Notes: a model not told the origin generated them from the sequence alone. A DNA stretch of 64,000 bases from an uncultured Candidatus Saccharibacteria bacterium (GCA_964370865.1 CAYJKF010000001.1:35703-99702), one strand, 5' to 3'; positions 20,601-43,267 are shown, counted from the stretch's first letter. Numbers and translations: made by a program.

Positions 20601-21380
20601 GTTAGCTACCTCGTCGGCATGATTTGCGGTGAAATATAAAGTCGGTAAAAGCCAATATGAATTTAGTATTAAGGTCGTGACGATTAAAACTGTTACTCTT
20701 TTTAAGCGACTTTGTTTGTTGATTCCTTTTTCAAGAAGAAAAAACATTAGTGCAAAAACCGAAAGCATCATAAAATTTACAAACCAAAGCGTTGGAGTGT
20801 GAGACATCGGCATGGAAAAGAAAGTTACGACAGTATATAAAAGAAAAGTTTTAGGTGACGGATTTTTTAGAAAAAGTAATGCTGTTAAAAATATCCATCC
20901 TATAAAACCGTATAAAGTTGCAAACATTTCAAGTGGAGCAAAAAATGTTTGTAATGTTCCTAGATTTAATAGATAGAACAATCCGCCTATAAAAGCAGCA
21001 TATTTGTAATTATTTTTTCCCTTAAATAAATGGGTTAGCAAATAATAAATCCCGAGTGGTCCAATAATTAGCATTGTGAAAAAATATGCCCATCTTAAAA
21101 AATGTGTTGGAAAGAATATATCGAGTGCCTGCATGTAAAGTACCCTTGGAATTTCTGATGCGTGTGCTTGAGTCGCGACTGCTCCAAGTCCCTGGTGATC
21201 CTGCCATACACTTTGCAAAACTCGTTCCCAATAAATAGAGAAATTCATTTCGGGGTGCAGAGTATCCCAGCCGCTAAGCCATGTTCCTGTCTTATAATTT
21301 GCAATACATAATACAATCGCAAAGCTAGCTAAAAGGAGAGGAAAGAAAATCTTAGGCAGTTCAATTTTCATTCTATTCAA
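17661..21380 (-). CDS. Very large polytopic membrane protein (about 500-aa multi-TM N-terminal domain plus about 700-aa extracytoplasmic domain), putative glycosyltransferase/envelope biogenesis protein
   Basis: A 1239-aa ORF with many predicted TM helices in the first approximately 520 residues and a large soluble domain after them. It overlaps the upstream GT-C-like gene by 8 nt. Confidence 0.5.
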   Translation of the reverse strand: MNRMKIELPKIFFPLLLASFAIVLCIANYKTGTWLSGWDTLHPEMNFSIYWERVLQSVWQDHQGLGAVATQAHASEIPRVLYMQALDIFFPTHFLRWAYFFTMLIIGPLGIYYLLTHLFKGKNNYKYAAFIGGLFYLLNLGTLQTFFAPLEMFATLYGFIGWIFLTALLFLKNPSPKTFLLYTVVTFFSMPMSHTPTLWFVNFMMLSVFALMFFLLEKGINKQSRLKRVTVLIVTTLILNSYWLLPTLYFTANHADEVANAKITSLVSDEGILNNLEYANIQNIAVLKGYLFNWKVHVGNESFNSIFVEWNAFYFRTFAIVIGYLFFALSIGGIIFTSLKKSSNSQVKYFLPIIFLSVFFLLMTSPPLGFLFGFMQNRLPLIKEALRFPYTKFSIPLMLSLSVFVGFFFLNFLEKIKIDKINLILKIIPVILLTYYFIPAFRGFLIGDIVKVKIPDSYFQVFDELNKEEGRRVATAPPNSIFGWVYYDWIRDNEVDASYQGAGFIWFLSKNPVLDREFDRWFPTNEDFYNEYQYAYYTNNIEQIKFVFEKYGVTEIMFDDSVISPGSPNSVNSQKMKELVSEDFEFVLLTEKDNLSVYTYVKKYPTRQYENNLNSEVSNDIYAPQKYLITGESYKDSQVDPVYYKNSNVAHLYSLDSKLSEIDIEYPFADDSSIKLVNENSLEIPYNENFIGENLQIQFGFNDFGRWPLKVNLFQGVLTLEDVIPVITDSSGQDLRLYGDGQTKKTSTSVPSGIGVVINGKKLREKETIILTSNSYPNFVFYNETPVAEYPFSNSVASAEPTDCFGGDGSFGKSIGKYPGSVVLSSYDRNICLKFDDGFALTRGDIVSTHFEYMTTSGGKAIYCIENVVTGECANEKYKNAPAKSEKYKTYEDYVEVFKTGEYRLVLINESSDKNETQNVEYKNIEVKKYRATGSTGFGSNHDTSPYTIQINNSQFPVKITFPEIEKYSKVFRPNLYDFNSDSRNCDLYNEEEFARELDPITGNFRYRAIDAISCDNLDLSEVDLSSGALVQITNQNISGKGLDVCLYSERIQKCLFTERLLTGTHAIVVPPYNDVEPLNLRISNHSIGKVPSENILSDLTFTPIPYSFIKGLTIMTKEHKYVDNSYAITNVVKSGKTRYKVEGSSSKPGKAVLVLNQSFEDGWNLYEADSCWFGITTPFTCRRVFTEHFVANNWANSWIFVPVSTSYVILYVPQYLQYIGYWLILSLFTISGVLWYKT

Positions 21381-23523: not shown

Positions 23524-23557
23524 CCTTCCAAATCAGTTTGAAAGACTCTTAAATGCG

Positions 23558-23640
23558 TGAGGCGGGGTAGAGTGTTTTGAATAGTGTTTTGATTGGAAAA
23601 ATCCCAGTCAAATCTTTTTCGAACACTCTGCCCGCCTCAT
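23558..23640. repeat. Long imperfect inverted repeat (about 18-bp stem with a 45-nt loop) at the left edge of GC-rich patch 1, followed by a second hairpin
   Basis: The arms are tgaggcggggtagagtgtt and aacactctgcccgcctca. The second hairpin, gtagctc...gagctac, lies at about 23650-23682. Confidence 0.5.
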
Positions 23641-23704
23641 TTGTAGCTCCGCTACCTCACGGTATGAGAGCTACTCCCAACGCATCTTGGCCTAGTCGGC
23701 GAGA

Positions 23705-24754
23705 TTAGTCTTCGATGAAGACCTCGCTGACAGTTCTGCTGCCGTTGTCGCTCTCGCGTGTTTTCCACTCAGCGAGTGTTTCGACTGACGGTCGACTTTC
23801 GAACGCGCAAGCGTACATGTGTGCCGTTCCCTCGGAACTATATCCAAGACCTTCGATCTGGACGTTCTGCCCCGGTTGGACAAGCAAGAGAACACGATCT
23901 CCGTACTGAACTTGATTCACACGTGCGGGATCCATCCCTGCCAAGACCCACAGGTCACTGTTGACGACCACCATGTCAGCTTGCGGATTATCGTATCCCA
24001 CAAGGAATGATGTGTCGTCTGGAACACATGTGACTACTGGTACTTCTTCGGTAACTTCAACTGCCGTATCTGCAGGCACCTCGACCGGGATGGTCTCGAT
24101 GACTGTTGAGGTTGTCGCCGCTGTTGCGGTGACGACGGTTGTTGCCACTGTGGCGAGGGCCACGACGGCGCCGGTGCGATGATCCACGACATCCACAACA
24201 TACGATACATTGTCTGACTGTGCCTGACGACGTTGCTCGATTGTGACCGGCGAAAGCATGTTGCTGCATTCGGGATAGGCATTAACGCTACCTGATGGCG
24301 ACAGAAGAGTCACCACGCGATAGGCACCTGGCCCCAAAAGCAGAACAGCAGACTTGCCACTCGACAGAGTAGCTCCGGTTAGCAGATCGTACAAAGTGTA
24401 AGGATCGGTCGTGACGATGCACTCATATGACTGTGGAACAACCATCGTGCCATCGCCGAGAGCCCAACCTGGCATGATTTGGTTTTGACCAAGAGTCGGA
24501 TATGCCGGACTTTTTGGCTCAACCGAAACCAAGACGATAGGAACTGCAGGGACTTCTGCGATGAGGAGAGTATTAGTCTCAACCTCGGACGCCTCAACAA
24601 CAGGCTCACCCTCGACCGGGATGGTCTCGGACTTGACTGTCGTGGCACTGTCACTGGTCGTAACTTGGGCTGGGGCCGAAGCCGGAGCCGGTGTCGCGCA
24701 TGCTGACAGAACCAACAAAACAACAAACAAACTACCTACAAGAAACTTGTTCAT
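23705..24754 (-). CDS. Secreted lipoprotein, hypothetical (GC-rich gene)
   Basis: A signal peptide with a lipobox (LVLSAC). The mature part is rich in V, T, A, P and E. The signal-peptide codons are AT-rich, but the mature part uses GC-ending codons (gtc, acc, ccg, atc). Confidence 0.6.
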   Translation of the reverse strand: MNKFLVGSLFVVLLVLSACATPAPASAPAQVTTSDSATTVKSETIPVEGEPVVEASEVETNTLLIAEVPAVPIVLVSVEPKSPAYPTLGQNQIMPGWALGDGTMVVPQSYECIVTTDPYTLYDLLTGATLSSGKSAVLLLGPGAYRVVTLLSPSGSVNAYPECSNMLSPVTIEQRRQAQSDNVSYVVDVVDHRTGAVVALATVATTVVTATAATTSTVIETIPVEVPADTAVEVTEEVPVVTCVPDDTSFLVGYDNPQADMVVVNSDLWVLAGMDPARVNQVQYGDRVLLLVQPGQNVQIEGLGYSSEGTAHMYACAFESRPSVETLAEWKTRESDNGSRTVSEVFIED

Positions 24755-24971
24755 CTTATTCCTCCTCGGAATTTTACTGCAAGACCTGCAAGGTTGTTGT
24801 TGTAAACACAGAGATGCTGGGGGACAAAAAGACTCTCCAAACTAAATTGAAGCTCCTATTTGTCCGCCAACATTCTTTTATTAAATGCGTTGGGAATGAT
24901 TCATATCTAAGTAATCCTCATCAGCAATAGATGAATCTACAAAAGATAAAATCAAGTTATTTTAAAGTTCA

Positions 24972-25022
24972 ATGGCATGCTATATGCCATCAAATTGAAG
25001 TCAACGAATAAATTCCTTGACT
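24972..25022. promoter_or_regulatory. Perfect palindrome ATGGCAT-N5-ATGCCAT next to copy 1 of the W motif (gtcaacgaataaattccttgact), upstream of the lipoprotein gene
   Basis: Read directly from the sequence. The W motif recurs at 27126-27148 and, in partial form, at 29410-29421. Confidence 0.4.
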
Positions 25023-25124
25023 CATTCAAAGTTTCGATTTCTCGAAAGCTTGAATGATCTGCGGCGGCGTTTATAGGTATTTGTAATTCGAGACAGAGTC
25101 CCTACCGATAAACGTCGCCGCTAG

Positions 25125-25331
25125 TCAGATCAGTGCCAGCCACTCCAGAATCACGATGCTGGCGACTATTACTACTACTAGTACAACGACAGCGAGGACG
25201 ATCTTGACGACCATCCTGGCGACATTCGGCCTCCAAAGTGCTCCTGTAAGGAGCAAGAAAGCCAAAAGACTCGAAGCGAGAATGATACTCGCATTGAGCC
25301 GGAGATACTCAACCATCCAATCTTGATTCAT
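25125..25331 (-). CDS. Small two-TM membrane protein, hypothetical (GC-rich)
   Basis: A 68-aa protein with two hydrophobic helices. It lies downstream of promoter X-A. Confidence 0.45.
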   Translation of the reverse strand: MNQDWMVEYLRLNASIILASSLLAFLLLTGALWRPNVARMVVKIVLAVVVLVVVIVASIVILEWLALI

Positions 25332-25560
25332 GGTCTACTCCCTATTCTGGTAAGTGATTACTGCACGATTGCCGAATGTAAAAGGATTCGACTCCTCTTA
25401 TATCCGACAACCGTTCTGATCTGCTATTTTTTAGTAAATGTGCTCTAGTATTTCTACTAGTTGTGTAAATCAACAAAGGCAATCTTTATTGACTCCTTTA
25501 GAACAAAAAATAATTTTTATCCTAAGGGATAAGGTGGTACTTTCTCTCAAAAGTGTGTCG

Positions 25561-25590
25561 ATTATACTATAGGGCCCCTACTTTTGTCAA
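25561..25590 (-). promoter_or_regulatory. Promoter X-A (cctataggaTTGACA-N18-TATAAT)
   Basis: The reverse complement of 25561-25598 reads cctataggATTGACAaaagtaggggccctatagTATAAT. The CTATAGG/CCTATAG inverted repeat brackets the spacer. Confidence 0.55.
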
Positions 25591-25659
25591 TCCTATAGGT
25601 CGCTTAAATTAAGAATAACCACCTTATATAATGTGCTTCCAACGATTGAAACAATCCTT

Positions 25660-25701
25660 GGATTGTAAAAAGGATCTGTGTCCTGCCCAGTCACAAATCC
25701 T
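25660..25701 (-). terminator. Terminator module Y-A (11-bp stem hairpin plus a U-run on the minus strand), downstream of gene 25851-26900
   Basis: The minus strand reads aaggatttgtg-actgggcagga-cacagatcctt followed by tttacaa. Confidence 0.55.
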
Positions 25702-25850
25702 TATACAAATCATTAATAAGTCTCAACTTACTTTTACCTTCGACTTAGATGTCAAAAACAAAAGTAAATTGGATCCAGAAAGAAATTAAAAAGTGTTGTG
25801 TGCGTGCTTGTTAGCATGCTCTTTTTAATCCTTCCTGGATCCATGGTTGT

Positions 25851-26900
25851 CTAGCGGGCGACGAAGGCGAGGTGAATCTTGTATGGAGAGAAGAAAAACT
25901 TCTGGAAATACATCCGTAGAGGCGACCGATCAGGGTCAAAAACGAGTTCGATTGTCTCAAACTCATACTCAACCACTACTAGGTCAACATCTTGGAAATT
26001 CTTCCAGAACTTTCCATCCACGTATACGTTGACCGACTCGACTTTGCAGCCAAAATTCAACTGTAAGTTGTTTCCATCCATTGTCCACAAGAAATTCGTG
26101 GGATGAGGTGTACTACAACTTGTAGGCGGTGGGGTGACACTGGGTGTCGGGAACACAACGAGTGTTGCAGTTGGCGATGGCGACGGTGTTGAGGTGGGAG
26201 CTGGTTCAATAGACCCAAATAGTTCTTCCCAAGTCAAATAGACCTTGGAATTTTGACCATCTGGATCAATCGCGAGCTCCATATCAACCACAAAATCCGA
26301 TTTGTTCACACGAACGACACCACCAGCCTCACTTCGGACAAATTCACCATCAAGATACAGATTTGCAATTTTGTTGCAGTCCCATCTGATGATGACTTCA
26401 TCCTCTACCACTTCCCATAATGAAAGACATACAACGGGAACCTCGGTTTCCGTTGGTGTTACCGTCATGGTAGAGACTGCTGTTGGTGAAATTGTTGGGT
26501 TGGGTGTCACCGGAACTAGATCCAGAAACAAGTAAACCTGATTGTCAGTCTCGTCTGTCTCAACAATCAAATTGTCTGGATCGAGCACGACTTCCAAACT
26601 TGTTTCTGGGCATCCCCGCACCAACAAAATCTCCGTTGGCGAAACCTCATTTCGACCAATATTTGTGTAATGGTCGAATTCCCCATCAACGTAGATATGA
26701 ACGATGATAGTGGCCTCTATCAATTCTGGGTTCTGAACTGCAAATTCCAAAATGACGAAGCACTGATCATCATGCGAAACAATATTAAACGTCCCGACTG
26801 AAATATTCGGAAGAGTCTCCGCCCGAACAACCGACACGGTCAAGCCTATAACCATAACAAGCGCCATGGCGACCAAGAACAAACTACACATCTTCTTCAT
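25851..26900 (-). CDS. Secreted protein with three internal approximately 100-aa repeats joined by Pro/Thr-rich linkers, hypothetical
   Basis: A signal peptide. The motifs HIYVDGEFDH, LYLDGEFVRSE and NVYVDGKFWKN recur, each followed by a DPD motif. PT-rich linkers separate the repeats. Confidence 0.6.
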   Translation of the reverse strand: MKKMCSLFLVAMALVMVIGLTVSVVRAETLPNISVGTFNIVSHDDQCFVILEFAVQNPELIEATIIVHIYVDGEFDHYTNIGRNEVSPTEILLVRGCPETSLEVVLDPDNLIVETDETDNQVYLFLDLVPVTPNPTISPTAVSTMTVTPTETEVPVVCLSLWEVVEDEVIIRWDCNKIANLYLDGEFVRSEAGGVVRVNKSDFVVDMELAIDPDGQNSKVYLTWEELFGSIEPAPTSTPSPSPTATLVVFPTPSVTPPPTSCSTPHPTNFLWTMDGNNLQLNFGCKVESVNVYVDGKFWKNFQDVDLVVVEYEFETIELVFDPDRSPLRMYFQKFFFSPYKIHLAFVAR

Positions 26901-27145
26901 GTTATCTCCTTGTGATAGTGTTGCGAAACAACCAAATAGAAAGCCATTTAAGCTACCTATTAGGTTGTTCCACAGAAACTAACCAAAGAGAATTTTCCGC
27001 TAGACTATTGTCAATATGAAACATATCCTTCTCCGCTTATGGATTGGAAAATTTCATACTATATTAATGTTCGATGAGTAAACTCATCAATATAAACCTA
27101 AGAAGCAAATTCTTCGGTTCATTCAGTCAACGAATAAATTCCTTG

Positions 27146-27187
27146 ACTTGTAAAAAGGATTCGTGTCCTGCCCAGTCACGAATCCTT
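27146..27187 (-). terminator. Terminator module Y-B (near-identical copy of Y-A), immediately preceded by W motif copy 2
   Basis: The minus strand reads aaggattcgtg-actgggcagga-cacgaatcctt followed by tttacaag. The stem is perfect. Confidence 0.55.
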
Positions 27188-27325
27188 ATACAAAAGTTGC
27201 GAACTGTCTAGTGTACTATTTAATTGTTATAAGTCTAGAGAATATTTTAGGCAGGGCGGGTTGCGATGAATCAGATTTGGGCCTGCGTAAAATAATCCTC
27301 TGTAATTCAATTGCGCGGCAAGTAT
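27150..27325 (-). ncRNA. Candidate approximately 170-nt small transcript or attenuator leader between promoter X-B and terminator Y-B
   Basis: A near-consensus promoter sits at 27321-27349 (minus strand). An intrinsic terminator follows about 130 nt downstream at 27146-27187. No convincing ORF lies between them. The next gene starts about 250 nt beyond the terminator. Confidence 0.35.
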
Positions 27326-27349
27326 ACTATAGGACTATATTTTTGTCAA
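27321..27349 (-). promoter_or_regulatory. Promoter X-B (cctctaggaTTGACA-N17-TATACT)
   Basis: The reverse complement reads cctctaggATTGACAaaaatatagtcctatagTATACT. Confidence 0.5.
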
Positions 27350-27458
27350 TCCTAGAGGTAAACCAATCCGCAGTTTAGAAGCTCAATTACCGCCAAATTC
27401 CTCTGCTATAGGTTTTGACAACATTGGATATTTATGCTAAATTTCAAGCACTAAAACC

Positions 27459-28694: not shown

Positions 28695-29354
28695 CTAAGC
28701 AAGCTGAACCTCAAACTCGGCAGGTCCAAGGTCTACGGTTGTAGGAGCGCAAACACATTTGACAGGTATATCATCTGGAAGCATATAAAAGAGCGAAGAC
28801 TTCTTGCCCTTATCCTTATCTGTTTCCAAGATGCATTTACCTACATCTTCTTTGCACTCTCCACAGTCGCCACATTCACCAGTACACCGACCAGCACCGT
28901 CATCACAAATCGGTGGCTTCAAAATACATGTAGCCATCGAGTAGCCATTCCAGATAGGATGCAAGTCTCCAAAAACCGCCTCGTAGGCATCTTTGAAATT
29001 AACCGCACCATCCGGATCAAGTGGAGCCCTGGCTGTCTTTGGAGCATGATGCAAATAGCCACCATACACACTAAAACAAAAACCAGCATATTCGTTCGTG
29101 AACAAAATATGCGCATGCCAGACCTCGTCAACATCCTTACTGCACATAGACATCCTTGAAGTACCAAGGGCAGCCAAGAAGAGAAACTTACGATACTCGT
29201 CGACCGCATCTGCAACCCTGTCTGCAGACATACCAGTCTCGCTAAGAACCCGGTCAGTAACATCCGAAAGGTCCACTTCGGCAATCTCCGCGAACGCAGG
29301 ATGGTACAACAACTCAGTTCTTTCCTCACATGCCTCACGAAATGCCTTGTACAT
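28695..29354 (-). CDS. GRDP-like (DUF1399-type) domain protein with a Cys-rich C-terminus, hypothetical (GC-rich)
   Basis: The motif DVDEVWHAHILFTNEYAGFC resembles the conserved D-x-D-x-VWH-x-H-x-L block of glycine-rich-domain protein/DUF1399 family members. The C-terminus carries CTGECGDCGECKEDVGKC. Confidence 0.4.
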   Translation of the reverse strand: MYKAFREACEERTELLYHPAFAEIAEVDLSDVTDRVLSETGMSADRVADAVDEYRKFLFLAALGTSRMSMCSKDVDEVWHAHILFTNEYAGFCFSVYGGYLHHAPKTARAPLDPDGAVNFKDAYEAVFGDLHPIWNGYSMATCILKPPICDDGAGRCTGECGDCGECKEDVGKCILETDKDKGKKSSLFYMLPDDIPVKCVCAPTTVDLGPAEFEVQLA

Positions 29355-29485: not shown

Positions 29486-31150
29486 TTGATGCCATATATA
29501 AAATTAAAAAATGAGAAATCAATCACAACCATAGAAGAGTTATATGAGTCTCTTCTTCAACTTAGAAATTTCACTGAAGAAGAAATTTCTAACTCAAAGC
29601 ATCCTTCAGAATATATAGAGACATTATTTGAGAAAGAATATTTTCAAATTCAAAAAGCGGTAGAAATCATAAAAGAGCACTTGTATGATAAGAAATTAAT
29701 AATAATTCATGGAGATTATGATGCTGATGGTCAAACCGCCACTGCGATTCTACAAAGAACAATTAGAGACGATTTAGGAAAAAAGAATGTCATTGCGTAC
29801 ATTCCTAATAGATTTGATGAAGGATACGGTCTTAGCACCGAAAGTATAGATGGAATGGAAAAGAGAACAATTCAAGAAGGATTTACTCCAAATCAAACAC
29901 TCATAATAACAGTAGATTGTGGAATTGTTTCGCCAAGCGAAGCAAAAATACTAAAAGAAAAAGGATTCACAGTAATAATTACAGACCATCACTCTAAAAC
30001 TGACAAAATTCCAGAAGTAGATGCAATCGTTTGGACAGATAAAGCCACAGGAGCTGGAATTGCATGGACTATTTCTAACAACCTAATTACAAGCAAATTT
30101 CCTCATGAAAAAAATAAATATTCTGACCTTGCAGCAATTGGAACCATATGTGACTTACAACCTCTAACCGATTTTAATAGAAGTATTTCGAAAATGGGTT
30201 TATTAGGACTAAATACAAATTCAAATTTAGGAATAAAAAAATTATTAGAAGTAGCAGGAGTTAAATTTCCAATAGATACATATGAAATCGGATGGGTAAT
30301 TGGTCCAAGACTAAACGCCACTGGAAGACTTGAAAATGCGATGGACTCATTAAATTTGTTAATCTCTGATGATCCAACTGACGCATTAAGAATTTCTAAA
30401 GAACTTAATTTGCTGAATCAAACAAGACAAGATAAAACATTTGCAGGATTTGAAATGGCGTCCAAAAAGATTGGGGAAAATAATATTCCTAATTTTATAA
30501 TTTCTTCTGACGAAAATTATCATGAAGGAATAATTGGATTAATAGCAGGAAGACTAACTCAAAAATTTAATCATCCAGCGATTGCGATTTCGATAGACAA
30601 AAATTCTGGACTCGCGAAAGGATCAGCCAGATCGATTACTGGAATATCAATTGTGGATTCACTAAGAGAAGTAGAAACTCTATTTGAAAAGGTCGGCGGC
30701 CATGAAATGGCCGCCGGATTCACCATCAAAACAGAAAACATCGAAAAGTTAAATGAATTTCTAAATAAAACATTAAAAATAGACCTATCCATTTTCGATA
30801 AAAAAATAGAAGCCGACCTTGAACTTCCCTCTTCATTAATTAGCCTATCCGCCTACGAAAAAATTCAAAGACTAAAACCATTTGGAACGGGCAATCCAGA
30901 ACCTACTTTCCTAACAAAAAATCTTAAAGTATTTAATAAAATCGTATTTGGAAAAGAAAACACACATCTTAAACTATTCTTACTAGACGAAAATCAGAAT
31001 GAATTTACAGCACTCGGATTTGGAAGAAGTTACATGAGCAATAAAATAAACATCGGAGAAAGCATCGACCTTTGCTATAACTTCTCTCTCAATGAATGGA
31101 ACGGCAATCGAAATTTAGAATTAAAAATAAGAGAAATATTGTCTAATTAG
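29486..31150 (+). CDS. recJ: Single-stranded-DNA-specific exonuclease RecJ
   Basis: DHH-family motifs (IIHGDYDADGQTA, ITDHH) and a DHHA1-like C-terminal half. Confidence 0.85.
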   Translation: MMPYIKLKNEKSITTIEELYESLLQLRNFTEEEISNSKHPSEYIETLFEKEYFQIQKAVEIIKEHLYDKKLIIIHGDYDADGQTATAILQRTIRDDLGKKNVIAYIPNRFDEGYGLSTESIDGMEKRTIQEGFTPNQTLIITVDCGIVSPSEAKILKEKGFTVIITDHHSKTDKIPEVDAIVWTDKATGAGIAWTISNNLITSKFPHEKNKYSDLAAIGTICDLQPLTDFNRSISKMGLLGLNTNSNLGIKKLLEVAGVKFPIDTYEIGWVIGPRLNATGRLENAMDSLNLLISDDPTDALRISKELNLLNQTRQDKTFAGFEMASKKIGENNIPNFIISSDENYHEGIIGLIAGRLTQKFNHPAIAISIDKNSGLAKGSARSITGISIVDSLREVETLFEKVGGHEMAAGFTIKTENIEKLNEFLNKTLKIDLSIFDKKIEADLELPSSLISLSAYEKIQRLKPFGTGNPEPTFLTKNLKVFNKIVFGKENTHLKLFLLDENQNEFTALGFGRSYMSNKINIGESIDLCYNFSLNEWNGNRNLELKIREILSN

Positions 31151-31947: not shown

Positions 31948-32442
31948 ATGAATCAAATACCGACAAATGTGGGTACCACACTTACAAAAAGGATAGTCGA
32001 AGCTCTAAATATAGCCTCTGTACCATATACAATCTCAACTCACGAACCTGTTAGAACCAGCGCCGAGGCAGCTTTGGTACGTGGATCCAACGAAGCAGAA
32101 GGAGCAAAAGCATTAATCTTTCGGGCAGACGGAAAACCAATACAAATTGTTCTTCAAGGAACTCGAAAGGTCGATAAGGACAAATTCAAGGCAAATTACA
32201 ATATTAATAAGCTCAAAATGGTCTCGGCTGAAGAAGTTTTAGAAATAAGTGGGGTTGAACCTGGAGGCGTTCCTCCTTTTGGTAATTTATTTGAGCCGGA
32301 AATTCCTGTATATTGTGATGATAATCTATTAAAATTAGATGACATTGAATTTAATGCGGGAGATAGGAGTGTAAGCATCCGCATGAAATCCCATGATTGG
32401 CAAAAGGTAGTAAATCCTGTCCTAGGAAATTTCACAGAATGA
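31948..32442 (+). CDS. YbaK/ProX-type aminoacyl-tRNA deacylase
   Basis: Similarity to the YbaK editing domain, including conserved GxxGGVPPFG. Confidence 0.7.
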   Translation: MNQIPTNVGTTLTKRIVEALNIASVPYTISTHEPVRTSAEAALVRGSNEAEGAKALIFRADGKPIQIVLQGTRKVDKDKFKANYNINKLKMVSAEEVLEISGVEPGGVPPFGNLFEPEIPVYCDDNLLKLDDIEFNAGDRSVSIRMKSHDWQKVVNPVLGNFTE

Positions 32443-33482
32443 AACCAACCCAAAATAGAAAGCTAAAAAAGAAACAAGACTCACATAAAGCCACGTACGA
32501 GGCTCCAAAAAACCACTCCATTTTTACGAGTATCCTATTAATACTATGTTTTCTAGCAGTATTATCAGGAGGAGCCGTGTTTTATTCCAGATACCCAAAT
32601 GGCATTGAACCACGTAAATCCGATGTAATGGTCGAACCGGCGACAACCAGCGCAGTATTATCCGCAAAGTCTCAAAAAGAACTTGTAACAGAAAATATAA
32701 CTACCAAAACTGATGCACCACAGATAACGGCTAAATCATATGGAATTTACTACCGAAAGAAAAATACTCCAAATGAATATGTAAAAATCGTAGAACGTGA
32801 GCCACAACAGATTTTGCCAATGGCCTCATTGACAAAGTTAATGACGGCATTAGTAGCATTAGAAAAATATCCGCTCGATAAAGAAATTACTATACCAGCA
32901 GTTTGCACAACCATAGTCGATGGAAGTAATGTTGGATTAAAAGCCGGCGAAATTTTTACCTTACAAGATCTACTGTTTGGCTTATTAGTAAAATCAGGAG
33001 CCGACGCTGGATGCACAATTGCAAACATAGAAAACCAGGAACAATTTATGAAGGAAATGAACGAAAAAGCTTCCTCCCTTGGAATGAAAGATACAAAATT
33101 TCAAAACGCAATTGGATTTGATTCAGGAACGACTCACGTTTCAACAATTAACGACCTTAAAATTCTATCAGAAGAAGTTTTGAAATCTAACGTACTTCGA
33201 AAAATCATAAGTACTCAAATTATTGAAATATCTCCTGAAAATTCGGCGAATGTTTATAGATTCAGTACAACAAATGATTTACTAAAATCGATCCCTGGTA
33301 CAGTTGGAATTAAAACCGGGTTTACTGAACTTGCAAAAGAATGCCTATCGTATCTTTACGAAGACAATCATTATGAAATCATGATTATATTATTGGGATC
33401 AGAAAAAAGATTTGAAGACACCAAGTCACTATTAGATTGGGCTAAAAAAGAAATAGAAAATAGTCAGACTCCTAATCCCTAA
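32439..33482 (+). CDS. D-alanyl-D-alanine carboxypeptidase (serine-type, PBP5/DacA-like)
   Basis: The active-site SxxK (ASLTKLMT), an N-terminal TM segment, and an ATGA start/stop overlap with the ybaK-like gene. Confidence 0.75.
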   Translation: MKPTQNRKLKKKQDSHKATYEAPKNHSIFTSILLILCFLAVLSGGAVFYSRYPNGIEPRKSDVMVEPATTSAVLSAKSQKELVTENITTKTDAPQITAKSYGIYYRKKNTPNEYVKIVEREPQQILPMASLTKLMTALVALEKYPLDKEITIPAVCTTIVDGSNVGLKAGEIFTLQDLLFGLLVKSGADAGCTIANIENQEQFMKEMNEKASSLGMKDTKFQNAIGFDSGTTHVSTINDLKILSEEVLKSNVLRKIISTQIIEISPENSANVYRFSTTNDLLKSIPGTVGIKTGFTELAKECLSYLYEDNHYEIMIILLGSEKRFEDTKSLLDWAKKEIENSQTPNP

Positions 33483-37194: not shown

Positions 37195-39048
37195 TTATTC
37201 TAGCACAGCCTTTATTCTTCTAACTCCTTTTGCAACAGCTTCTTCTTTTAAAATTTTAAAGTGACCAAGTTCTGAAGTATTTCCTACATGTGGTCCACCG
37301 CAAAATTCTTTTGACCATGCCGATTCGATTGTTTCTCCAACATAATAAACGTTTACCATGTCTGCATATTTTTCACTAAAAAAATGAATTGCACCAGTCG
37401 CCTCGGCTTCTTTTATTGGAAGAACAACTTTATTCATTGGAAGTTTTTCTGAAATTTTTTGATTTACGAGTTGTTCGACTAACGCAATTTGTTCCACGGT
37501 CATCTTTTCATTATGCGAAAAATCAAAACGCAATCTTTCTGGCGTAATATTACTTCCCATTTGTCCAACATGTGTTCCTAATATTTCTCTAAGTGCGCTG
37601 TGTAATAAATGGGTAGCTGTATGAAGTTTTGTTGTTTCATAGGAATGGTCACCAAGCCCTCCTTTAAATCTATCACCCATATTTGCACGAGATTTTTCTT
37701 GATGCTCTTCGAGTTGTTTTTCGAAATCAGTAAAATCTACTTCTAAATTTAATTCTTTAGCGAGATTTTCAATTAAATCTTTTGAAGCGCCTTGTGATTG
37801 GTAAATATCAAATGGATTGTCGATTTTAGATAAAGCTTTGTTTACATATGTATGTGTTATAAAATTTCTTGTTCGATTAAATACTTCTTTATATAAATTA
37901 ACTTCATCGTTTATAACTTTAAAAATATGCGCCGTGTTATCAAGTTCTGGATAGATGTGTTTGTTTTTTTCAATAACCATTAATGCTATCTGATCAATTT
38001 GATCTGGGTTTATATATAGGTTCCACAGGCATTCATCAAATATCCTTCTTATAAGTCTTCTTAATACATATCCTTGATCTTTGTTTGATGGATATAAATT
38101 TTCAGCAATCAAAAAAGTTACAGTTCTAATATGGTCAGCGACCCTTTGAACTCCTGTTTTAATAGTTGTTTGCTCAATTGTAGTTGGATTTACTAAAGCG
38201 TCTTGAATTTTTTCGGATTCAGAACTTAAAGCAATTATTTTATTTATTATTTCGGAAAAAACATCTGTTTCATAAACAGAATCCACGTGCTGAATAAGTG
38301 TTGTCATTCGCTCAAGGCCTGAACCGGTATCAACAGATAAAGCAGGAAGTGGAGTTAGTTTTCCATCTTCTCCACGATTAAATTGCATAAAAACTCCTGC
38401 ATTCCAAATTTCTAAGTATCTTGGATTATCAGTTAGTCCTGGTCGATCTTCTTTTGGACCAAATTCTTCTCCTCTATCATATAAAACTTCAGTGCAGGGA
38501 CCACATGGACCAACGGGACCTGGAGCCCACCAATTTTCACTCCCTGGCAATTTTGAAATGTGAGATTCAGGTACTCCAACTGATTTCCATGCCTCAATGG
38601 TTTCAGTATCTTCGGGGCATTCTTCGTTTCCTTCAAAAACAGTCGGACGGAATTTTGTAGCATCAAATCCGAATCCGTATTCTTTGTTTGTTAACAAATC
38701 AAATGCAAACTGAATGGCTTCTTTTTTGCCATAATCTCCAATTGACCAGTTACCAAGCATTTCGAAAAATGTAAGGTGATATTTACTTGTTCCAACAATA
38801 TCTAAATCTCCAGTTCTAATACATTTCTGTGAGCTACAAAGTCTCTTCGAACCAAAATCTTTCTCGGCATCCCTCTCACCTAAAAAATAAGGCGTAAATT
38901 GAACCATTCCAGAATTTGTAAAAAGCAATGTTGGATGATTTTCGGGAATAAGTTTACTCGATGAAACCTCAATATGAGGATATCCACGTTCAGCCAAAAC
39001 CTTAACAAAATAATCAATAAATCTCTTACGGATTTCAGTAGATGTCAT
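37195..39048 (-). CDS. alaS: Alanine--tRNA ligase (short form lacking the C-terminal domain)
   Basis: An N-terminus MTSTEIRKRFIDYFVKVLAERGYPHIEVSSSKLIP...LLFTNSGM, the class II core, and an editing-domain HxxxH motif (TATHLLHSALR). The longer ORF in the track, ending at 39210, overlaps the conserved repeat, so M55 is the more likely start. Confidence 0.8.
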   Translation of the reverse strand: MTSTEIRKRFIDYFVKVLAERGYPHIEVSSSKLIPENHPTLLFTNSGMVQFTPYFLGERDAEKDFGSKRLCSSQKCIRTGDLDIVGTSKYHLTFFEMLGNWSIGDYGKKEAIQFAFDLLTNKEYGFGFDATKFRPTVFEGNEECPEDTETIEAWKSVGVPESHISKLPGSENWWAPGPVGPCGPCTEVLYDRGEEFGPKEDRPGLTDNPRYLEIWNAGVFMQFNRGEDGKLTPLPALSVDTGSGLERMTTLIQHVDSVYETDVFSEIINKIIALSSESEKIQDALVNPTTIEQTTIKTGVQRVADHIRTVTFLIAENLYPSNKDQGYVLRRLIRRIFDECLWNLYINPDQIDQIALMVIEKNKHIYPELDNTAHIFKVINDEVNLYKEVFNRTRNFITHTYVNKALSKIDNPFDIYQSQGASKDLIENLAKELNLEVDFTDFEKQLEEHQEKSRANMGDRFKGGLGDHSYETTKLHTATHLLHSALREILGTHVGQMGSNITPERLRFDFSHNEKMTVEQIALVEQLVNQKISEKLPMNKVVLPIKEAEATGAIHFFSEKYADMVNVYYVGETIESAWSKEFCGGPHVGNTSELGHFKILKEEAVAKGVRRIKAVLE

Positions 39049-39082
39049 GAAGGTATTATATAGGATTTTGTCTTTGGAAAAA

Positions 39083-39207
39083 GGGTACTGCGGCTGATAG
39101 GGTGAAAGAAAAAGTTTTGTATTCAAAAGAATACATGTTTTGGTCGAAATGACCGAAACAGATCTATGAAGATCAACTTTTCTCTCAACCCTATCAGCTT
39201 TTTTTAT
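39083..39207 (+). ncRNA. Structured repeat element copy 1 (candidate small RNA). It has a long closing stem, two internal perfect hairpins and a T7 run.
   Basis: The outer stem is gctgatagggtgaaagaaaaagtt / aacttttctctcaaccctatcagc. Inside are the hairpins gtattc-aaaa-gaatac and ggtc-gaaat-gacc. The element ends in TTTTTTT. A -10-like TATTATAT lies about 25 nt upstream. A second copy, about 90% identical, is at 40312-40437. The strand assignment is tentative. Confidence 0.4.
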
Positions 39208-39310
39208 CAAATGAATTCATTTTATTTTTCTTAGCACGATTGCCAAGAATTTTTTTACTATTTTAATGCGGTAAAGCTATGTAAACAACTCCTCGCGGAA
39301 TTGTTAAAAA

Positions 39311-39345
39311 GAAGCAGAACCCGGGACGGGGGTTCTTTTCTTTGT
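39311..39345. terminator. Bidirectional intrinsic terminator hairpin (agaaccc-ggga-c-gggggttct, flanked by an A-run and a T-run) after gene 39348-39875
   Basis: Read directly from the sequence. Confidence 0.6.
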
Positions 39346-39347
39346 GT

Positions 39348-39875
39348 TCATCGCTTTACCGCGAGGACGACATGGAGTCCTCCATTGCTGGAGCTCCCGG
39401 CAACCCAAAGTTTAGCACGAGGCTGTTCGGTACTTGGATCAAGCCAAGTATAAGTTTGCCCTGGCCAAACAATCCATCCATCTACAAAGACTTCCGAGAC
39501 AACTGTGCCTTCCTTCCCGTAGGGAGGAGTCATCCGGATGAATAACTCATCCTTCATGATTCCATAACCTATGAGGTCGGCTTCTATGTTGTACTGATCG
39601 AGGACGGGGAAGCCCTTGTCGATTGGAAACAACTCTGGCATACGGCCAGGTAATGCTGGAAGATTTTGGATAACATACATGTTGACTGGGCTATACCCAA
39701 CTTGGAGTATCTCCCAATTCTCGTCCGCCGTAGGAAGCGCTGTCAGTGTCGATACTTCAGTTGGCATCTCCATAGAAGTCGATGGAAGTGCTTCCCCGAC
39801 TCTTTCGGATACTTTGCATACCAAAAAAGATATCAACAGTCCAACACACACCAAAAATCCCAGTAGCTTACTCAT
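39348..39875 (-). CDS. Secreted hypothetical protein (cassette copy 1; moderately GC-enriched)
   Basis: A signal peptide (MSKLLGFLVCVGLLISFLVC). The C-terminal segment EVFVDGWIVWPGQT resembles EVFLNGIPVEPGIT in the gene at 40579-41811. An AGGAGG ribosome-binding site lies upstream. Confidence 0.55.
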   Translation of the reverse strand: MSKLLGFLVCVGLLISFLVCKVSERVGEALPSTSMEMPTEVSTLTALPTADENWEILQVGYSPVNMYVIQNLPALPGRMPELFPIDKGFPVLDQYNIEADLIGYGIMKDELFIRMTPPYGKEGTVVSEVFVDGWIVWPGQTYTWLDPSTEQPRAKLWVAGSSSNGGLHVVLAVKR

Positions 39876-39944
39876 CTAGTACCTCCTAGGTACTTAAACA
39901 CCAGTGGATTATTAAGGTGCATCGCGATAAATTGCGATTTGATT

Positions 39945-40006
39945 CTCTTTCCCCAAAAGCTGGATTCCTCGCACCACGAGAGGTTTCCTTGGGCGTCCCG
40001 AAAGAG
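39945..40006 (-). promoter_or_regulatory. Conserved multi-stem 5' leader element (copy 1) in the long leader of gene 39348-39875
   Basis: On the sense strand the stems are P1 cucuuuc/gaaagag, P1b cccaa/uuggg and the hairpin cucg-uggu-cgag. The same three helices are preserved in copy 2 (41888-41955) despite loop and linker differences. Confidence 0.4.
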
Positions 40007-40184
40007 CAAACAACCAGATAATGACTTATGTCGCTGTCTAGTTGCTTACTTATTCAAGACTAAAAGAAAAATATCCCTAAGAATTCATTTTATTATTAAT
40101 GTACTCGAAACATCGTTAGCAAAGCCTATTTGCACCGTGTTGTCGAAAGATGTTCAGCTTGAAATGTTTTAAGCAGAACGCCTA

Positions 40185-40219
40185 ATTATATCGCAAATTA
40201 GCACAAACTCAACCTATAG
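40185..40219 (-). promoter_or_regulatory. Cassette promoter, copy 1 (ctataggTTGAGT-N16-TATAAT)
   Basis: The reverse complement reads ctataggTTGAGTttgtgctaatttgcgaTATAAT. Confidence 0.5.
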
Positions 40220-40311
40220 TAATCTAGCCAGGCTCGATTACTTGGTCAAAATTTTCTTCAATTTTTGCTGATGTCAGGATGATGTTATATAGATTTTTAT
40301 ATTGTGAGAAA

Positions 40312-40437
40312 GGGTACTGCGGCTGATAGGGTGAAAGAAAAAGTTTTGTATTCAAAAGAATACAATGTTTTGGTCGAAATGACCGAAACAGATCTTAAAT
40401 GATCAACTTTCCTCTCAGCCCTATCAGCTTTCTTTGA
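40312..40437 (+). ncRNA. Structured repeat element copy 2 (candidate small RNA)
   Basis: It has the same stem/hairpin architecture as copy 1. It is preceded by an extended -10-like TGtTATATA. Confidence 0.4.
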
Positions 40438-40578
40438 ATCAAATGAATTAATTTATTTTTCTTAGCACGATTGCCAAGAAATTTTTCTTTCTACAGCAAC
40501 TGCTATATGAACAATTCCTCACGGAACTGTTAGAAAGAAGCAGAACCCGGGACGGGGGCTCGACTTCTCTTCTCATCT

Positions 40579-41811
40579 CTACCTTGCGGTAGGGACGAGG
40601 GGTGATTCAGCGGTGCCCGCAAGGCTTGTTTGCCCTGGGCAAAGTGACAGCTGGAAAGCTCTCCCGACGATGAGGACATCTCCTCGAACTATGTCGTCAT
40701 AGCGAACTTTTAGGACCCAATTGTCTCCCCACCTCGTGATACCTGGTTCAACCGGAATGCCGTTCAAGAACACCTCTTGAATGAAGAATACATTCTCCTG
40801 GTTGAACTGAACAATATGGACCTGAATGAGATCTCCACCATTAGTGAGGTCAAATAGGCCCTCGCCATGCAAAGACCACTCTGGTCCTTCTACTTCTTCC
40901 TGCCAGGAAGTCTCAACTGCAGACGTCGTGATGACGCTGACGTAGGGATCTCCCGAACCACGGACGAGGTAACATTTCTCGCCATCATCAGGCTCCGGAG
41001 TTGATGTTGCCTCGACGTTGGGCATTGGTGTTGGAATTTCCGTAGGTTGTTCTGTGGGAACTTCCGTTGGTTGTTCTGTAGGAACTTCCGTTGGTTGTTC
41101 TGTGGGAACTTCCGTTGGTTGTTCTGTAGGAACTTCCGTTGGCTGTTCTGTAGGAACTTCCGTTGGCTGTTCTGTGGGAACTTTCGTTGGTTGTTCTGTA
41201 GGAACTTCCGTTGGCTGTTCTGTGGGAACTACCGTTGGCTCGTCTGTTGGGACTGCCGTTGGTTCGTCTGTTGGGACTACCGTTGGCTCGTCTGTCGGGA
41301 CTGCTGTTGGCTCGTCTGTTGGGACTGCCGTTGGTTCGTCCGTCGGGACTGCCGTTGGTTCGTCCGTCGGGACTGCCGTTGGCTCGTCTGTTGGGACTAC
41401 CGTTGGCTCGTCTGTTGGGACTACCGTTGGCTCGTCGTCTGTTGGGACTGCCGTTGGTTCGTCTGTTGGGACTTCTGTACACTCTGGTGTGGGAACTTGA
41501 GTAGGAACCTCTGTCGGCTTCGGGGTTTTTGTGGGTTTATCACCACCACACCAACCTTCGTTACCATCGGCTCTATCTTCATCGTTACCACATCCATTAT
41601 TATCGTGTGGCTTTCCCTCCCCAGGATCAGGTGTGCCTTGATCTCGATCTGGCCCATGACCATCATTGTCTGGCTCGTTGAAACCTCGGGTCGGCTCCGG
41701 CAAAGGAGAATCCTTCGATCCATTTGCACTCACCACACGAGGAAGCATTATCATTGTGCCAAGCAAGGCCACAATAATAATTACACTGAATACCGCAAAC
41801 AACTTGCGCAT
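40579..41811 (-). CDS. Secreted protein with a long (PTDEPTAV)n/(PTEQPTEV)n Pro/Thr-rich tandem-repeat region (cassette copy 2; GC-rich)
   Basis: A signal peptide, an acidic Gly/Asp-rich N-terminal region, about 20 eight-residue repeats and a C-terminal globular part. It has the same flanking leader and 3' repeat elements as copy 1. Confidence 0.65.
   Translation of the reverse strand: MRKLFAVFSVIIIVALLGTMIMLPRVVSANGSKDSPLPEPTRGFNEPDNDGHGPDRDQGTPDPGEGKPHDNNGCGNDEDRADGNEGWCGGDKPTKTPKPTEVPTQVPTPECTEVPTDEPTAVPTDDEPTVVPTDEPTVVPTDEPTAVPTDEPTAVPTDEPTAVPTDEPTAVPTDEPTVVPTDEPTAVPTDEPTVVPTEQPTEVPTEQPTKVPTEQPTEVPTEQPTEVPTEQPTEVPTEQPTEVPTEQPTEVPTEQPTEIPTPMPNVEATSTPEPDDGEKCYLVRGSGDPYVSVITTSAVETSWQEEVEGPEWSLHGEGLFDLTNGGDLIQVHIVQFNQENVFFIQEVFLNGIPVEPGITRWGDNWVLKVRYDDIVRGDVLIVGRAFQLSLCPGQTSLAGTAESPLVPTAR
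41018..41500. repeat. 24-bp coding tandem-repeat array (about 20 units, two subfamilies) inside gene 40579-41811
   Basis: Units such as ggaacttccgttggttgttctgtg and ggactgccgttggttcgtctgtt repeat head to tail. They translate on the minus strand to VPTEQPTE and VPTDEPTA. Confidence 0.85.
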
Positions 41812-41887
41812 GGGAATTTTCCCTCCTTTGCGCTAAAAACTTGACCTAACGTTACCAATAGTGCATCGCTTTCGCGATTCTGATTCC

Positions 41888-41955
41888 TCTTTCCCCCCAA
41901 AAAACTGGATCCTCGCACTACGAGAGAGATCACTTGGGTTTGTCCCGAAAGAGAG
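41888..41955 (-). promoter_or_regulatory. Conserved multi-stem 5' leader element (copy 2)
   Basis: See copy 1. Confidence 0.4.
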
Positions 41956-42168
41956 AGCGATAAGATAACGATCGTTATCTTTACCTTATTGCTCAATCCT
42001 TAGGAAATATAGAAAGAAAAATATCCCTTTAAAATATTAAATTCATTTGATTGTTAAGGTACGTCATTTGAAGGGATTATTATAAGCGAAGCATCTTCGC
42101 TCGTATTTCTTCAAATCGAGTTCAGACACATGTTATATAGAATATATAGCAGGGTAAGAACAAGGCCT

Positions 42169-42203
42169 ATTATACTACATTTTTAGTATAAATCAACCTA
42201 TAG
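42169..42203 (-). promoter_or_regulatory. Cassette promoter, copy 2 (ctataggTTGATT-N16-TATAAT)
   Basis: The reverse complement reads ctataggTTGATTtatactaaaaatgtagTATAAT. Confidence 0.5.
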
Positions 42204-42211
42204 TACGTTGG

Positions 42212-43267
42212 CTAGAGCCTTAAGACAATCTCAAACTCCTCCTCAATATGCTCTGCTGACGTAACAATAGTCTGATATTTTTTCATTACGCTGGTTATAT
42301 TCTCCCTAAAATTGTCATCTAGCTCACTGAAAATATCGTCGAGTAAAAGAGTGGGAACTACTTTTGTCTCCTTTTCGATATATTGGAGCTCAAGGATTTT
42401 GAGGGCGAGGGCAGCAGTTCGCTGCTGCCCCCTAGAACCATAACTCTGAAGATCTAAATTCCTACTATCCTTAGCTATAATAAAATCAAAATCATCCCGA
42501 TGAGGTCCAACAGAAGTAGAGCCTTTGGATAAATCCCTACCTCGGCTCGCCTCTAAGGAACTTGGCGTAATAAGCACCGGCTTATAATCCAACTGCAATA
42601 AATATTCATTCCCAAACAATTCACCAGACACCTTATCTAAATTTTCCTTAGCAAATTCAAAAAACATCTTTCTAGACTGTTGTACATACATTCCTGCATC
42701 GGTTAATTGCTTATCCCAAACTTCTAATTGGTTCTCAAATATATTATGAATAACTTGTCCTTCAGCCATATCCAAAAGTTTGTTTCTATGTTTAAGTAGT
42801 CGTTCATACCTGTGAATGGTTCGATAATATTCTGACGAAACCTGTGAAAGTAAACCATCCACATAATCTCTGCGCCTAGAAGGCGAACCAATTACAAGCC
42901 TAATATCTTCGGGGTTAAATAAGACCGCTTTAAAAATACCAACAAAATCTTTTGACTTCTTTACGACTCCATTCTTTTTGAAAGTCTTTTTAACACGTCC
43001 CATTCCCGATCTTTCCTCTATAAACTCAAGCTTAGTATTATCTTCAAAAACCCCAACAGTTCTACAAAAGTTGGAATCAATATTAATCATCTCCTTTTCA
43101 GTAACCGCACGAAATGATCTTCCTTTACTTAAAACGCTAATTGCCTCAAGAATATTCGTCTTTCCTGAACCGTTCGAGCCTGATATCAAAGTAGTAGTAC
43201 TAGAAAGACTAACTTCTTTTTTAAGATGATTTCTAAAATTTTGTAACTCAATCGTTCGAATTTTCAT
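42212..43267 (-). CDS. recF: DNA replication and repair protein RecF
   Basis: An N-terminal Walker A (ISGSNGSGKTNILEAI) with the SMC-like RecF architecture. Confidence 0.85.
   Translation of the reverse strand: MKIRTIELQNFRNHLKKEVSLSSTTTLISGSNGSGKTNILEAISVLSKGRSFRAVTEKEMINIDSNFCRTVGVFEDNTKLEFIEERSGMGRVKKTFKKNGVVKKSKDFVGIFKAVLFNPEDIRLVIGSPSRRRDYVDGLLSQVSSEYYRTIHRYERLLKHRNKLLDMAEGQVIHNIFENQLEVWDKQLTDAGMYVQQSRKMFFEFAKENLDKVSGELFGNEYLLQLDYKPVLITPSSLEASRGRDLSKGSTSVGPHRDDFDFIIAKDSRNLDLQSYGSRGQQRTAALALKILELQYIEKETKVVPTLLLDDIFSELDDNFRENITSVMKKYQTIVTSAEHIEEEFEIVLRL

Follow-up and report, generated by a model that had tools for sequence, protein, structure and literature searches.

Chromosomal integron arrays, such as those of Vibrio cholerae with their attC repeats, carry imperfect palindromes of about 120 nucleotides (nt), more than 90% identical to one another, at the 3' side of unrelated, mostly orphan and compositionally atypical open reading frames (ORFs). 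Capsule and O-antigen loci hold unrelated coding content between conserved flanking genes, with alleles that segregate between strains. The vsp/vpma loci of Mycoplasma bovis and M. agalactiae consist of neighboring surface-protein genes with highly conserved 5' non-coding regions and divergent, repeat-rich bodies; they share a conserved 31-residue lipoprotein signal peptide, form clusters of 6–13 genes, lie next to a gene for an Xer-type recombinase, and switch by inversion (PMC3365025). Here we analyze a locus in a 64,000-nt stretch of DNA from an uncultured Candidatus Saccharibacteria bacterium (GCA_964370865.1, CAYJKF010000001.1:35703-99702; called the window, with positions counted from its first letter), in which two tandem, direct copies of an expression cassette lie between the genes recF and alaS. 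A preliminary description of this locus had proposed that the non-coding flanks of the two copies are conserved far better than the coding sequence, and had likened this to a contingency, antigenic-variation or gene-conversion locus. We confirm the unusual pattern of conservation, but not its interpretation as a variation system. In the explanation that we favor, at a little better than even confidence, the flanks have been kept by selection on RNA or DNA signals, and the coding segment next to alaS has been replaced by an unrelated, GC-rich orphan.

All genes of the locus are on the minus strand, in the 5'-to-3' order recF, ORF2 (unit 2), ORF1 (unit 1), alaS. Each unit has a predicted promoter, a 5' leader, a ribosome-binding site (RBS) with its ORF, a terminator, two or three hairpins (hp), and a branched hairpin. 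The predicted promoters are near-consensus and sigma-70-like, with ACTATAGG just upstream, and the predicted 5' untranslated region (UTR) is about 300–350 nt long in each unit (about 350 nt in unit 2), with a four-helix leader of about 86 nt inside it. A single copy of the cassette is present in one relative, at the locus L086. The features of the window, and the evidence for each, are:

42212–42247, minus strand: 3' end of recF (IEEEFEIVLRL, stop), the upstream boundary of unit 2 (ORF list, Pfam SMC_N).
42169–42204, minus strand: predicted unit 2 promoter, ACTATAGGTTGA then TTGATT-16-TATAAT (10/12 in the promoter scan; homologs in unit 1 and L086).
41865–41953, minus strand: unit 2 structured 5' leader, helices P1–P4 (85% identity to unit 1; base-pair bookkeeping).
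41812–41864, minus strand: unit 2 RBS region (matches L086, AAAGGAG..AAATTCC..ATGCG; non-homologous to unit 1).
40579–41811, minus strand: ORF2, 410 amino acids (aa) (Pfam PT, 3e-32).
41029–41475, minus strand: PT repeat array within ORF2, 18.5 units of 24 nt (repeat analysis).
40543–40561, minus strand: predicted unit 2 intrinsic terminator hp1, GAGCCCCCGTCCCGGGTTC with a U-rich tail.
40510–40531, minus strand: unit 2 hp2, a predicted hairpin.
40459–40480, minus strand: unit 2 hp3, a predicted hairpin overlapping a promoter-like TTGGCA-16-TAAATT (promoter scan).
40319–40431, minus strand: unit 2 branched hairpin, about 112 nt (dG -49.8 kcal/mol, z = -7.1; 130 bits with covariance model R1).
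40224–40277, minus strand: duplication joint, a remnant of the alaS head with a remnant of the recF tail.
40185–40220, minus strand: predicted unit 1 promoter, ACTATAGGTTGA then TTGAGT-16-TATAAT (promoter scan).
39921–40006, minus strand: unit 1 structured 5' leader, helices P1–P4 (alignment, folding).
39348–39875, minus strand: ORF1, 175 aa, with a strong RBS of its own.
39316–39336, minus strand: predicted unit 1 terminator hp1.
39284–39305, minus strand: unit 1 hp2, a predicted hairpin.
39228–39249, minus strand: unit 1 hp3 and promoter-like block (predicted hairpin, promoter scan).
39090–39201, minus strand: unit 1 branched hairpin, 42 nt 5' of the alaS ATG (dG -50.6 kcal/mol, z = -7.8; L086 homolog at 2329–2423).
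39055–39064, minus strand: CCTATATAAT, kept in L086 and lying 6 nt from the alaS ATG; a possible -10 box, if the alaS mRNA is leaderless.
37195–39048, minus strand: alaS, 617 aa, ATG at 39048, the downstream boundary (Pfam tRNA-synt_2c, 3e-118).

Block alignment of the two units bears out that the cassette is a tandem duplicate. Identity between them is 80% in the upstream promoter, 85% in the GC-rich 5' leader (88/104, where about 80% had been estimated), 90% across hp1 and hp2 (47/52), and 97% in the palindromic block of hp3 and its promoter-like site (32/33). The branched-hairpin element, which lies 3' of each ORF and in unit 1 just upstream of alaS, is 95% identical (125/132, against an initial figure of roughly 90% for 125 nt). 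As had been noticed, an AT-rich stretch is common to both units: AGGGATATTTTTCTTT is identical in the two. Spacers and gene-end remnants are 67–77% identical, which still exceeds shuffled sequence (P = 0.008–0.034), and the division between conserved blocks (204/217, 94%) and remainder (83/117, 71%) is highly significant (Fisher P = 3e-8). Homology between the units ends sharply after leader helix P4 and restarts at terminator hp1. This mosaic of high- and low-identity blocks points to selection on discrete elements.

The RBS and ORF segments between those two borders, in contrast, are at chance level. ORF1 and ORF2 have a BLASTP E-value of at least 0.69, and Smith-Waterman z-scores of 1.5 as proteins and 1.9 as nucleotides, the latter also not significant. 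Comparison of ORF starts and ends gave P = 0.1–0.99, with the first 60–90 nt at random identity, and there is no similarity between ORF1 and ORF2 in alternative frames. The short C-terminal motifs that the two proteins had been thought to share (EVFxxG, PGQT) are not above chance. tblastn searches against the window and the relatives gave no sign that ORF1 arose by frameshift or from another locus. ORF2 consists of an N-terminal hydrophobic segment, a CxND..AD..WC loop, the PT repeats and a C-terminal domain of 140 aa. The hydrophobic N-termini of ORF1 and ORF2 are read as signal peptides, by eye and not with a predictor, so the earlier view that both proteins are secreted stands as a reading of the sequence; on the same reading we saw no lipobox-like motif in the ORF N-termini. 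Pfam matched nothing in the cassette ORFs except the PT repeat. Neither ORF1 nor the C-terminal domain of ORF2 has a homolog outside the species among 5.8e9 proteins, and a full phmmer search with ORF1 against 1.84e9 cluster representatives also found none outside the species. AlphaFold2, run without alignments, gave C-terminal domains with pLDDT values of 52 (ORF1) and 48 (ORF2), too low for a fold search; with low confidence, both are predicted to be all-beta.

The joint between the units records how they arose. At this point a remnant of the alaS head (40260–40277, LTSAKI) is fused to a remnant of the recF tail (40224–40262, IEENFDQVIEPG and a stop) by way of a shared ATT at 40260–40262, a 3-nt microhomology. 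Both remnants are decayed, that of recF in comparison with the true recF end. The duplicated segment extends from about 12 codons before the recF stop through alaS codon 6, so there are two units as first described, but the repeated unit is wider than the limits then drawn (39083–40307 and 40312–42210). Because pieces of both neighboring genes lie at the joint, we conclude that a single illegitimate tandem duplication copied the entire recF–alaS intergenic segment. The unit boundary is this fusion, 42–55 nt past the hairpin, and the recF and alaS fragments rule out a site-specific insertion at the hairpin.

To place the cassette in a history, we collected relatives by an AlaRS protein search and contig look-ups, which gave a graded series. 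The nearest named relatives are labelled Patescibacteria (Candidate Phyla Radiation, CPR). A genome scan of GTDB was uninformative about relatives, as the AlaRS is at most 46% identical to that of any species representative. In L088, L090 and L095 (AlaRS 67%, 68% and 69% identical) recF abuts or overlaps alaS, the tight junction being a 29-nt gap or an overlap, and P0047 (1016 aa), a database protein, was called as a fusion of recF and alaS. Four others with AlaRS identities of 70–73% have accessory genes 5' of alaS, at L087 4068–6934, L092 24–317, L093 255–845 and L094 2280–3720; the genes found at the junction are PIN, BrnT/CopG toxin-antitoxin, NYN and glycosyltransferase genes. The tight recF|alaS junction is probably ancestral, and within this clade the site acts as an accessory-gene hotspot.

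Among the relatives examined only L086, the closest of them (AlaRS 81%), carries the cassette, as a single copy. Its promoter (ACTATAGGATTAG..GATAAT), leader and branched hairpin are homologous to those of the window; it also has a short hairpin, and CCTATATAAT precedes its alaS ATG. Its ORF encodes a secreted-type, TP-rich protein of 161 aa that can be aligned to ORF2 in the N-terminal region of the latter (CxND..AD..WC and a PT run; z = 5.5, reached in 0 of 300 shuffles); judged by this alignment, it is a distant ortholog of ORF2 only. The RBS and start of unit 2 match those of L086, and those of unit 1 do not. Since RBS, start and N-terminal motif all agree with L086, unit 2 is the copy that holds the ancestral gene. 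ORF1 resembles ORF2 less than the L086 ORF does, even though the paralogous flanks are much closer to each other. GC content at third codon positions (GC3) is 48% in ORF1 and 44–48% in ORF2, and in both species all cassette ORFs have values of 44–50%, versus 18–35% in neighboring genes. As this anomaly is common to orthologous cassette ORFs of two species, it has not decayed since they split. GC3 values of 44–58% are seen in several genes: window 28695–29354, the cassette ORFs, and L086 1801–2286.

Structural comparison with L086 shows what is being conserved in the flanks. Of 26 leader base pairs compared between unit 1 and L086, 19 are unchanged, six have compensatory changes, none has a one-sided change, and one terminal pair is broken; RNAalifold agrees only in part with this bookkeeping. 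With compensatory changes and a site between the predicted promoter and the RBS, the leader has the properties of a structured cis-regulatory element. The branched hairpin is cloverleaf-like, with three hairpins within a long stem, and folds at about -50 kcal/mol (z down to -7.8, single-sequence folding). Its L086 homolog has the same architecture (-46 kcal/mol, z = -8.3; 26 bits with covariance model R1), and the folds show paired changes between window and L086 in the closing stem and the inner hairpins. A GC-rich hairpin hp1 with a U-tract is predicted right after each ORF, as in intrinsic terminators. Differences between the units in hp2 keep pairing through G-U on the sense strand, and the promoter-like hp3 forms a palindrome or hairpin of 9 bp; an RNA-level function of hp2 and hp3 is likely, because G-U pairs work only on the sense strand. 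Since compensatory changes in leader and hairpin are seen in the single-copy L086, the structures are under constraint without recombination. Conservation of the flanks would then follow from purifying selection on RNA signals, a simpler explanation than a variation locus, and we infer that in both copies purifying selection maintains these blocks as functional signals.

Rfam (4227 families) gave no match at gathering score across the 64 kb, and at E <= 10 only chance-level matches in 38900–42400. The covariance model of the branched hairpin also matches a generic long hairpin at 23555–23642 on both strands, so this model detects mostly long palindromes. We also observed that a 5' UTR motif, AAATGAATT (42031–42052), is complementary over 18–22 nt (81–89%) to an AT-rich palindrome of the 3' flank, AAATGAATTCATTT (40437–40458 and 39206–39226); the motif is absent from L086. 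From this complementarity an interaction between 5' and 3' UTRs is conceivable.

The favored explanation, a conserved frame with replaced cargo, would run as follows. An accessory, lineage-specific cassette for a secreted PT-rich protein would have come to sit in the recF|alaS junction, its leader probably acting as a translational or transcriptional control element near the RBS, and its 3' block probably serving termination, insulation of alaS and mRNA stability. In the window species the whole intergenic cassette was duplicated in tandem, by illegitimate recombination as judged from the joint. The RBS and ORF segment of the alaS-proximal copy would later have been replaced, most plausibly through recombination with breakpoints in or beside the conserved flanks, while the recF-proximal copy kept the ancestral gene. 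Replacement is argued from the presumably neutral remnants, which are still about 70% identical, so that point divergence alone cannot have made the ORFs unalignable. The suggestion in the preliminary description that the flanks supply homology for recombination is thus a reasonable inference from the sharp borders of homology, but active gene conversion is not upheld.

Several points weigh against this explanation. The 'neutral' remnants are short (24–40 nt each), and some constraint may act on them, for instance if they serve as upstream promoter DNA; neutral divergence could then be underestimated. ORF1 and ORF2 have weak collinear motifs (PE.., FIR/FIQ, EVFxxG, PGxT), and ORF1 contains an MPTEVST stretch; together with the all-beta predictions these leave room for common descent with extreme divergence. 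The branched hairpin folds equally well on both strands, and so is possibly a DNA palindrome. The leader has no significant single-sequence folding z-score, the covariation comes from two lineages only (three instances in two species), and promoters, terminator and UTR extent are predictions.

The first alternative dispenses with replacement: both ORFs would descend from one duplicated ancestor and, while constraint held the UTRs, would have diverged by slippage and indels in the low-complexity PT region and by strong diversifying selection acting on a surface protein. We consider this unlikely. Even the orthologous pair of ORF2 and the L086 ORF has kept only a short motif, with signal-peptide DNA at random identity, and ORF1 retains a PT-like stretch (MEMPTEVST..LPTADE) besides the weak collinear motifs and the predicted all-beta C-terminal domains. 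However, synonymous sites should have left the ORFs alignable, and it is hard to see why ORFs and RBS regions should be at chance level when supposedly neutral remnants remain about 70% identical. The lack of alternative-frame similarity, and the fact that ORF1 is less like ORF2 than the L086 ORF is, also count against it.

Concerted evolution, in which gene conversion homogenizes the flanks of tandem units whose ORFs are too different to pair, is an improbable alternative. Direct repeats 1.2 kb apart are good substrates for conversion, and the 3' block is 90–97% identical over about 250 nt, including AT-rich stretches of no obvious function. But identity within this block is a mosaic, with a 34-nt stretch at 59–77%, containing indels, between blocks at 90% and 97%, and the spacer after the branched hairpin falls to 71%. 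Moreover, retention of the same elements with compensatory changes in single-copy L086 implies constraint that needs no conversion.

Still less probable is that the branched hairpin is a regulatory leader of alaS, either a tRNA-like mimic for autoregulation by AlaRS or a T-box-like attenuator, transcribed from TTGGCA-16-TAAAAT, with the unit 2 copy as a relic. The hairpin is cloverleaf-like, lies 42 nt 5' of the alaS ATG, and has this promoter-like site (10/12) just upstream. Yet the site is itself the 9-bp palindrome, L086 has no promoter between its ORF and the hairpin, and the hairpin is absent from all relatives without the cassette, so it came with the cassette and not with alaS. The unit 2 hairpin is kept at 95% though no alaS follows it. 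Nor does any Rfam family, T-box included, match at gathering score in the 64 kb, which speaks against a known alaS leader. The conserved TATAAT 6 nt before the ATG suggests that the alaS transcript starts downstream of the hairpin. The CCTATATAAT element occupies this position in both species (39055–39064; L086 2434–2443), with no Shine-Dalgarno sequence, and its unit 2 counterpart (40284–40293) is decayed. This arrangement would fit a leaderless alaS mRNA whose promoter arose through, or together with, insertion of the cassette.

About 28–39 ENA assembly blocks, all of one accession series, contain the organism. Five loci that we compared in detail with the window are 99.5–99.9% identical to it over about 20 kb, or about 99.97% without the PT array, and within the recF–alaS cassette region all differences among them fall in that array. 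The order recF-ORF2-ORF1-alaS is found in 24 of 24 contigs carrying an identical AlaRS. The array itself, initially counted as 20 units, has 18.5; ORF2 length variants of 362, 370, 410 and 418 aa exist, all in frame. The shorter arrays come from assemblies of about 6x coverage and some 40% of contigs end inside the array (for example those of L004, L005, L108 and L109); real slippage and assembly artefact are equally likely. Because the repeat unit is 24 nt and in frame it is unable to switch expression on or off, and this speaks against a simple-sequence contingency locus. An apparent 'extra 100 nt' in L003 is a 100-N scaffold gap (10797–10896) right after the 3' hairpin. As the repeats of the locus disturb short-read assembly, statements about copy number from these assemblies are unsafe. 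Over the 20 kb, the assemblies otherwise differ only by one isolated substitution at 35749 and by small clusters of substitutions at 30304–30761 and 32371–32642, in recJ and at the boundary of tRNA_edit and peptidase S11 genes; the clusters may be recombination tracts or local assembly errors.

We also searched for further copies of the flanks. None was found in the window. A leader-pattern scan of JGI metagenomes gave 10 matches, versus about seven expected by a rough prior estimate; none has the inner or downstream hairpin, most look coding, and they are on contigs of 38–71% GC, so they look like chance. Viral contigs had no match to either the leader pattern or the 3' hairpin pattern. Among the Pfam-annotated genes within 10 kb on either side and 20 other ORFs of the window we found neither a recombinase, integrase or transposase nor a reverse transcriptase, about 10 ORFs at 44–50 kb and 57–63 kb being outside the scan. 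A contingency, antigenic-variation or active conversion locus is not supported: there are only two copies, both direct, the ORFs checked include no recombinase, and the gene order is constant. Programmed variation, whether by flank-driven exchange at such a locus or in an integron-like array with an attC-like hairpin, is the least probable explanation we weighed: its likeness to vsp/vpma loci and integron arrays, the differing PT array lengths, and a second GC-rich secreted orphan pair with common non-coding blocks at 23.7–27.4 kb are outweighed by a joint that places the origin of the copy in illegitimate duplication and not at the hairpin, by just two direct copies in one constant architecture, by an in-frame PT unit whose shorter arrays come from low-coverage assemblies, by imperfect GTTRRRY-like and RYYYAAC-like motifs in the wrong arm order for attC, and by the lack of a recombinase, integrase or reverse transcriptase in the ORFs checked and of flank copies elsewhere.

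The window is a piece of core chromosome from a bacterium with AT-rich DNA (about 35% GC); its genes include rpoB, secDF, murJ, those for a sortase and LytR-CpsA-Psr, and pilM/N/O-like ones. At E <= 1e-5 no Pfam family matches an ORF of 1239 aa (17661–21380) whose N-terminus has a hydrophobic segment. The second orphan pair (23705–27360, minus strand) consists of two GC-rich secreted ORFs of 349 aa each, with GC3 of 54% and 49%, unrelated by BLASTP and without a Pfam family. Two non-coding blocks, one of 55 nt (91%) and one of 33 nt (88%), are common to both units but differ in order between them, and the promoters have the form CCTATAGGATTGACA..CCTATAGTATAAT; a GC-rich 66-aa ORF (25130–25331) lies between them. 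The generic hairpin at 23555–23642 mentioned above is a branched structure of about 90 nt directly 3' of the GC-rich ORF at 23705–24754 (25 bits, matched on both strands). Long palindromic structures thus seem to recur 3' of genes for GC-rich secreted orphans, and the pair hints that the pattern recurs in the genome.

A bolder extension of the replaced-cargo explanation, which we regard as improbable, is that promoter, leader and 3' block form a portable 'expression chassis' of these CPR bacteria, into which unrelated GC-rich secreted ORFs are swapped at hairpin-bounded borders, by a recombinase-independent, non-integron route. On that view the leader would represent a regulatory RNA of a new class, and the 23.7–27.4 kb pair a further example; the persistent GC-richness of the cargo would reflect either frequent recombination or origin from a GC-richer donor, for instance the host organism. 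If replacement of the cargo is correct, one frame brackets three different secreted proteins (two in the window genome and one in a sister species), and regulatory RNA structures can outlive the genes they control. A recF|alaS hotspot with a conserved frame would also make the turnover of orphans traceable in metagenomes. The leader and the branched hairpin are two candidate RNA motifs without an Rfam match, from a phylum whose regulation is almost unstudied. Secreted orphans that turn over fast and are odd in composition could plausibly mediate the episymbiotic way of life of Patescibacteria.

How, then, does the locus compare with known systems? A literature search found no comparable system in Patescibacteria. 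Like the vsp/vpma genes, the units share a promoter (80%) and a leader (85%), here in two copies only; unlike them, their signal peptides are unconserved, the copies are direct, and we found no recombinase among the ORFs checked and saw no variants, so that a locus of this type is rejected on its signal-peptide, recombinase and inversion hallmarks. As in integron arrays, near-identical palindromes of about 120 nt lie 3' of unrelated orphan ORFs. Unlike an integron cassette, each unit brings a promoter of its own along with a long 5' UTR that is conserved, no IntI was found among the ORFs checked, and the boundary is in recF and alaS fragments. Direct reading of the hairpin gave GTTGAGA and GTTAGAG in the 5' arm and CTTTCAC and CTCTTTA in the 3' arm. 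An attC site is rejected, as the order of R'' (RYYYAAC) and R' (GTTRRRY) is reversed, the cores are imperfect, the ORFs checked include no integrase, and the boundary is off the hairpin. A diversity-generating retroelement is likewise rejected: none of the ORFs checked is a reverse transcriptase, and none of the repeats matches a coding segment to a non-coding template.

With capsule and O-antigen loci the cassette has in common sharp breaks of homology at its borders, as expected from recombination in the flanks, but here the flanks are non-coding structured blocks, a single genome has both 'alleles' in tandem, and we saw no alternative ones. It resembles regulon leader RNAs and riboswitches in having a structured 5' UTR near the RBS that is better conserved than the ORFs and shows compensatory changes; it differs in matching none of the 4227 Rfam families and in being known from three instances in two species, with no ligand or protein inferable. 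Head-to-tail copies, neighbor-gene fragments and 3-nt microhomology are those of an ordinary tandem duplication, but in such a duplication coding and non-coding sequence should diverge together, whereas here the ORFs are unalignable and the flanks are 85–97% identical. A contingency system is not demonstrated; the feature is genuine, though small in scale, and varies on themes known from tandem duplications, from leader RNAs under conservation and from surface genes that are hypervariable. Turnover of ORFs within a conserved frame, as proposed here, is unusual.

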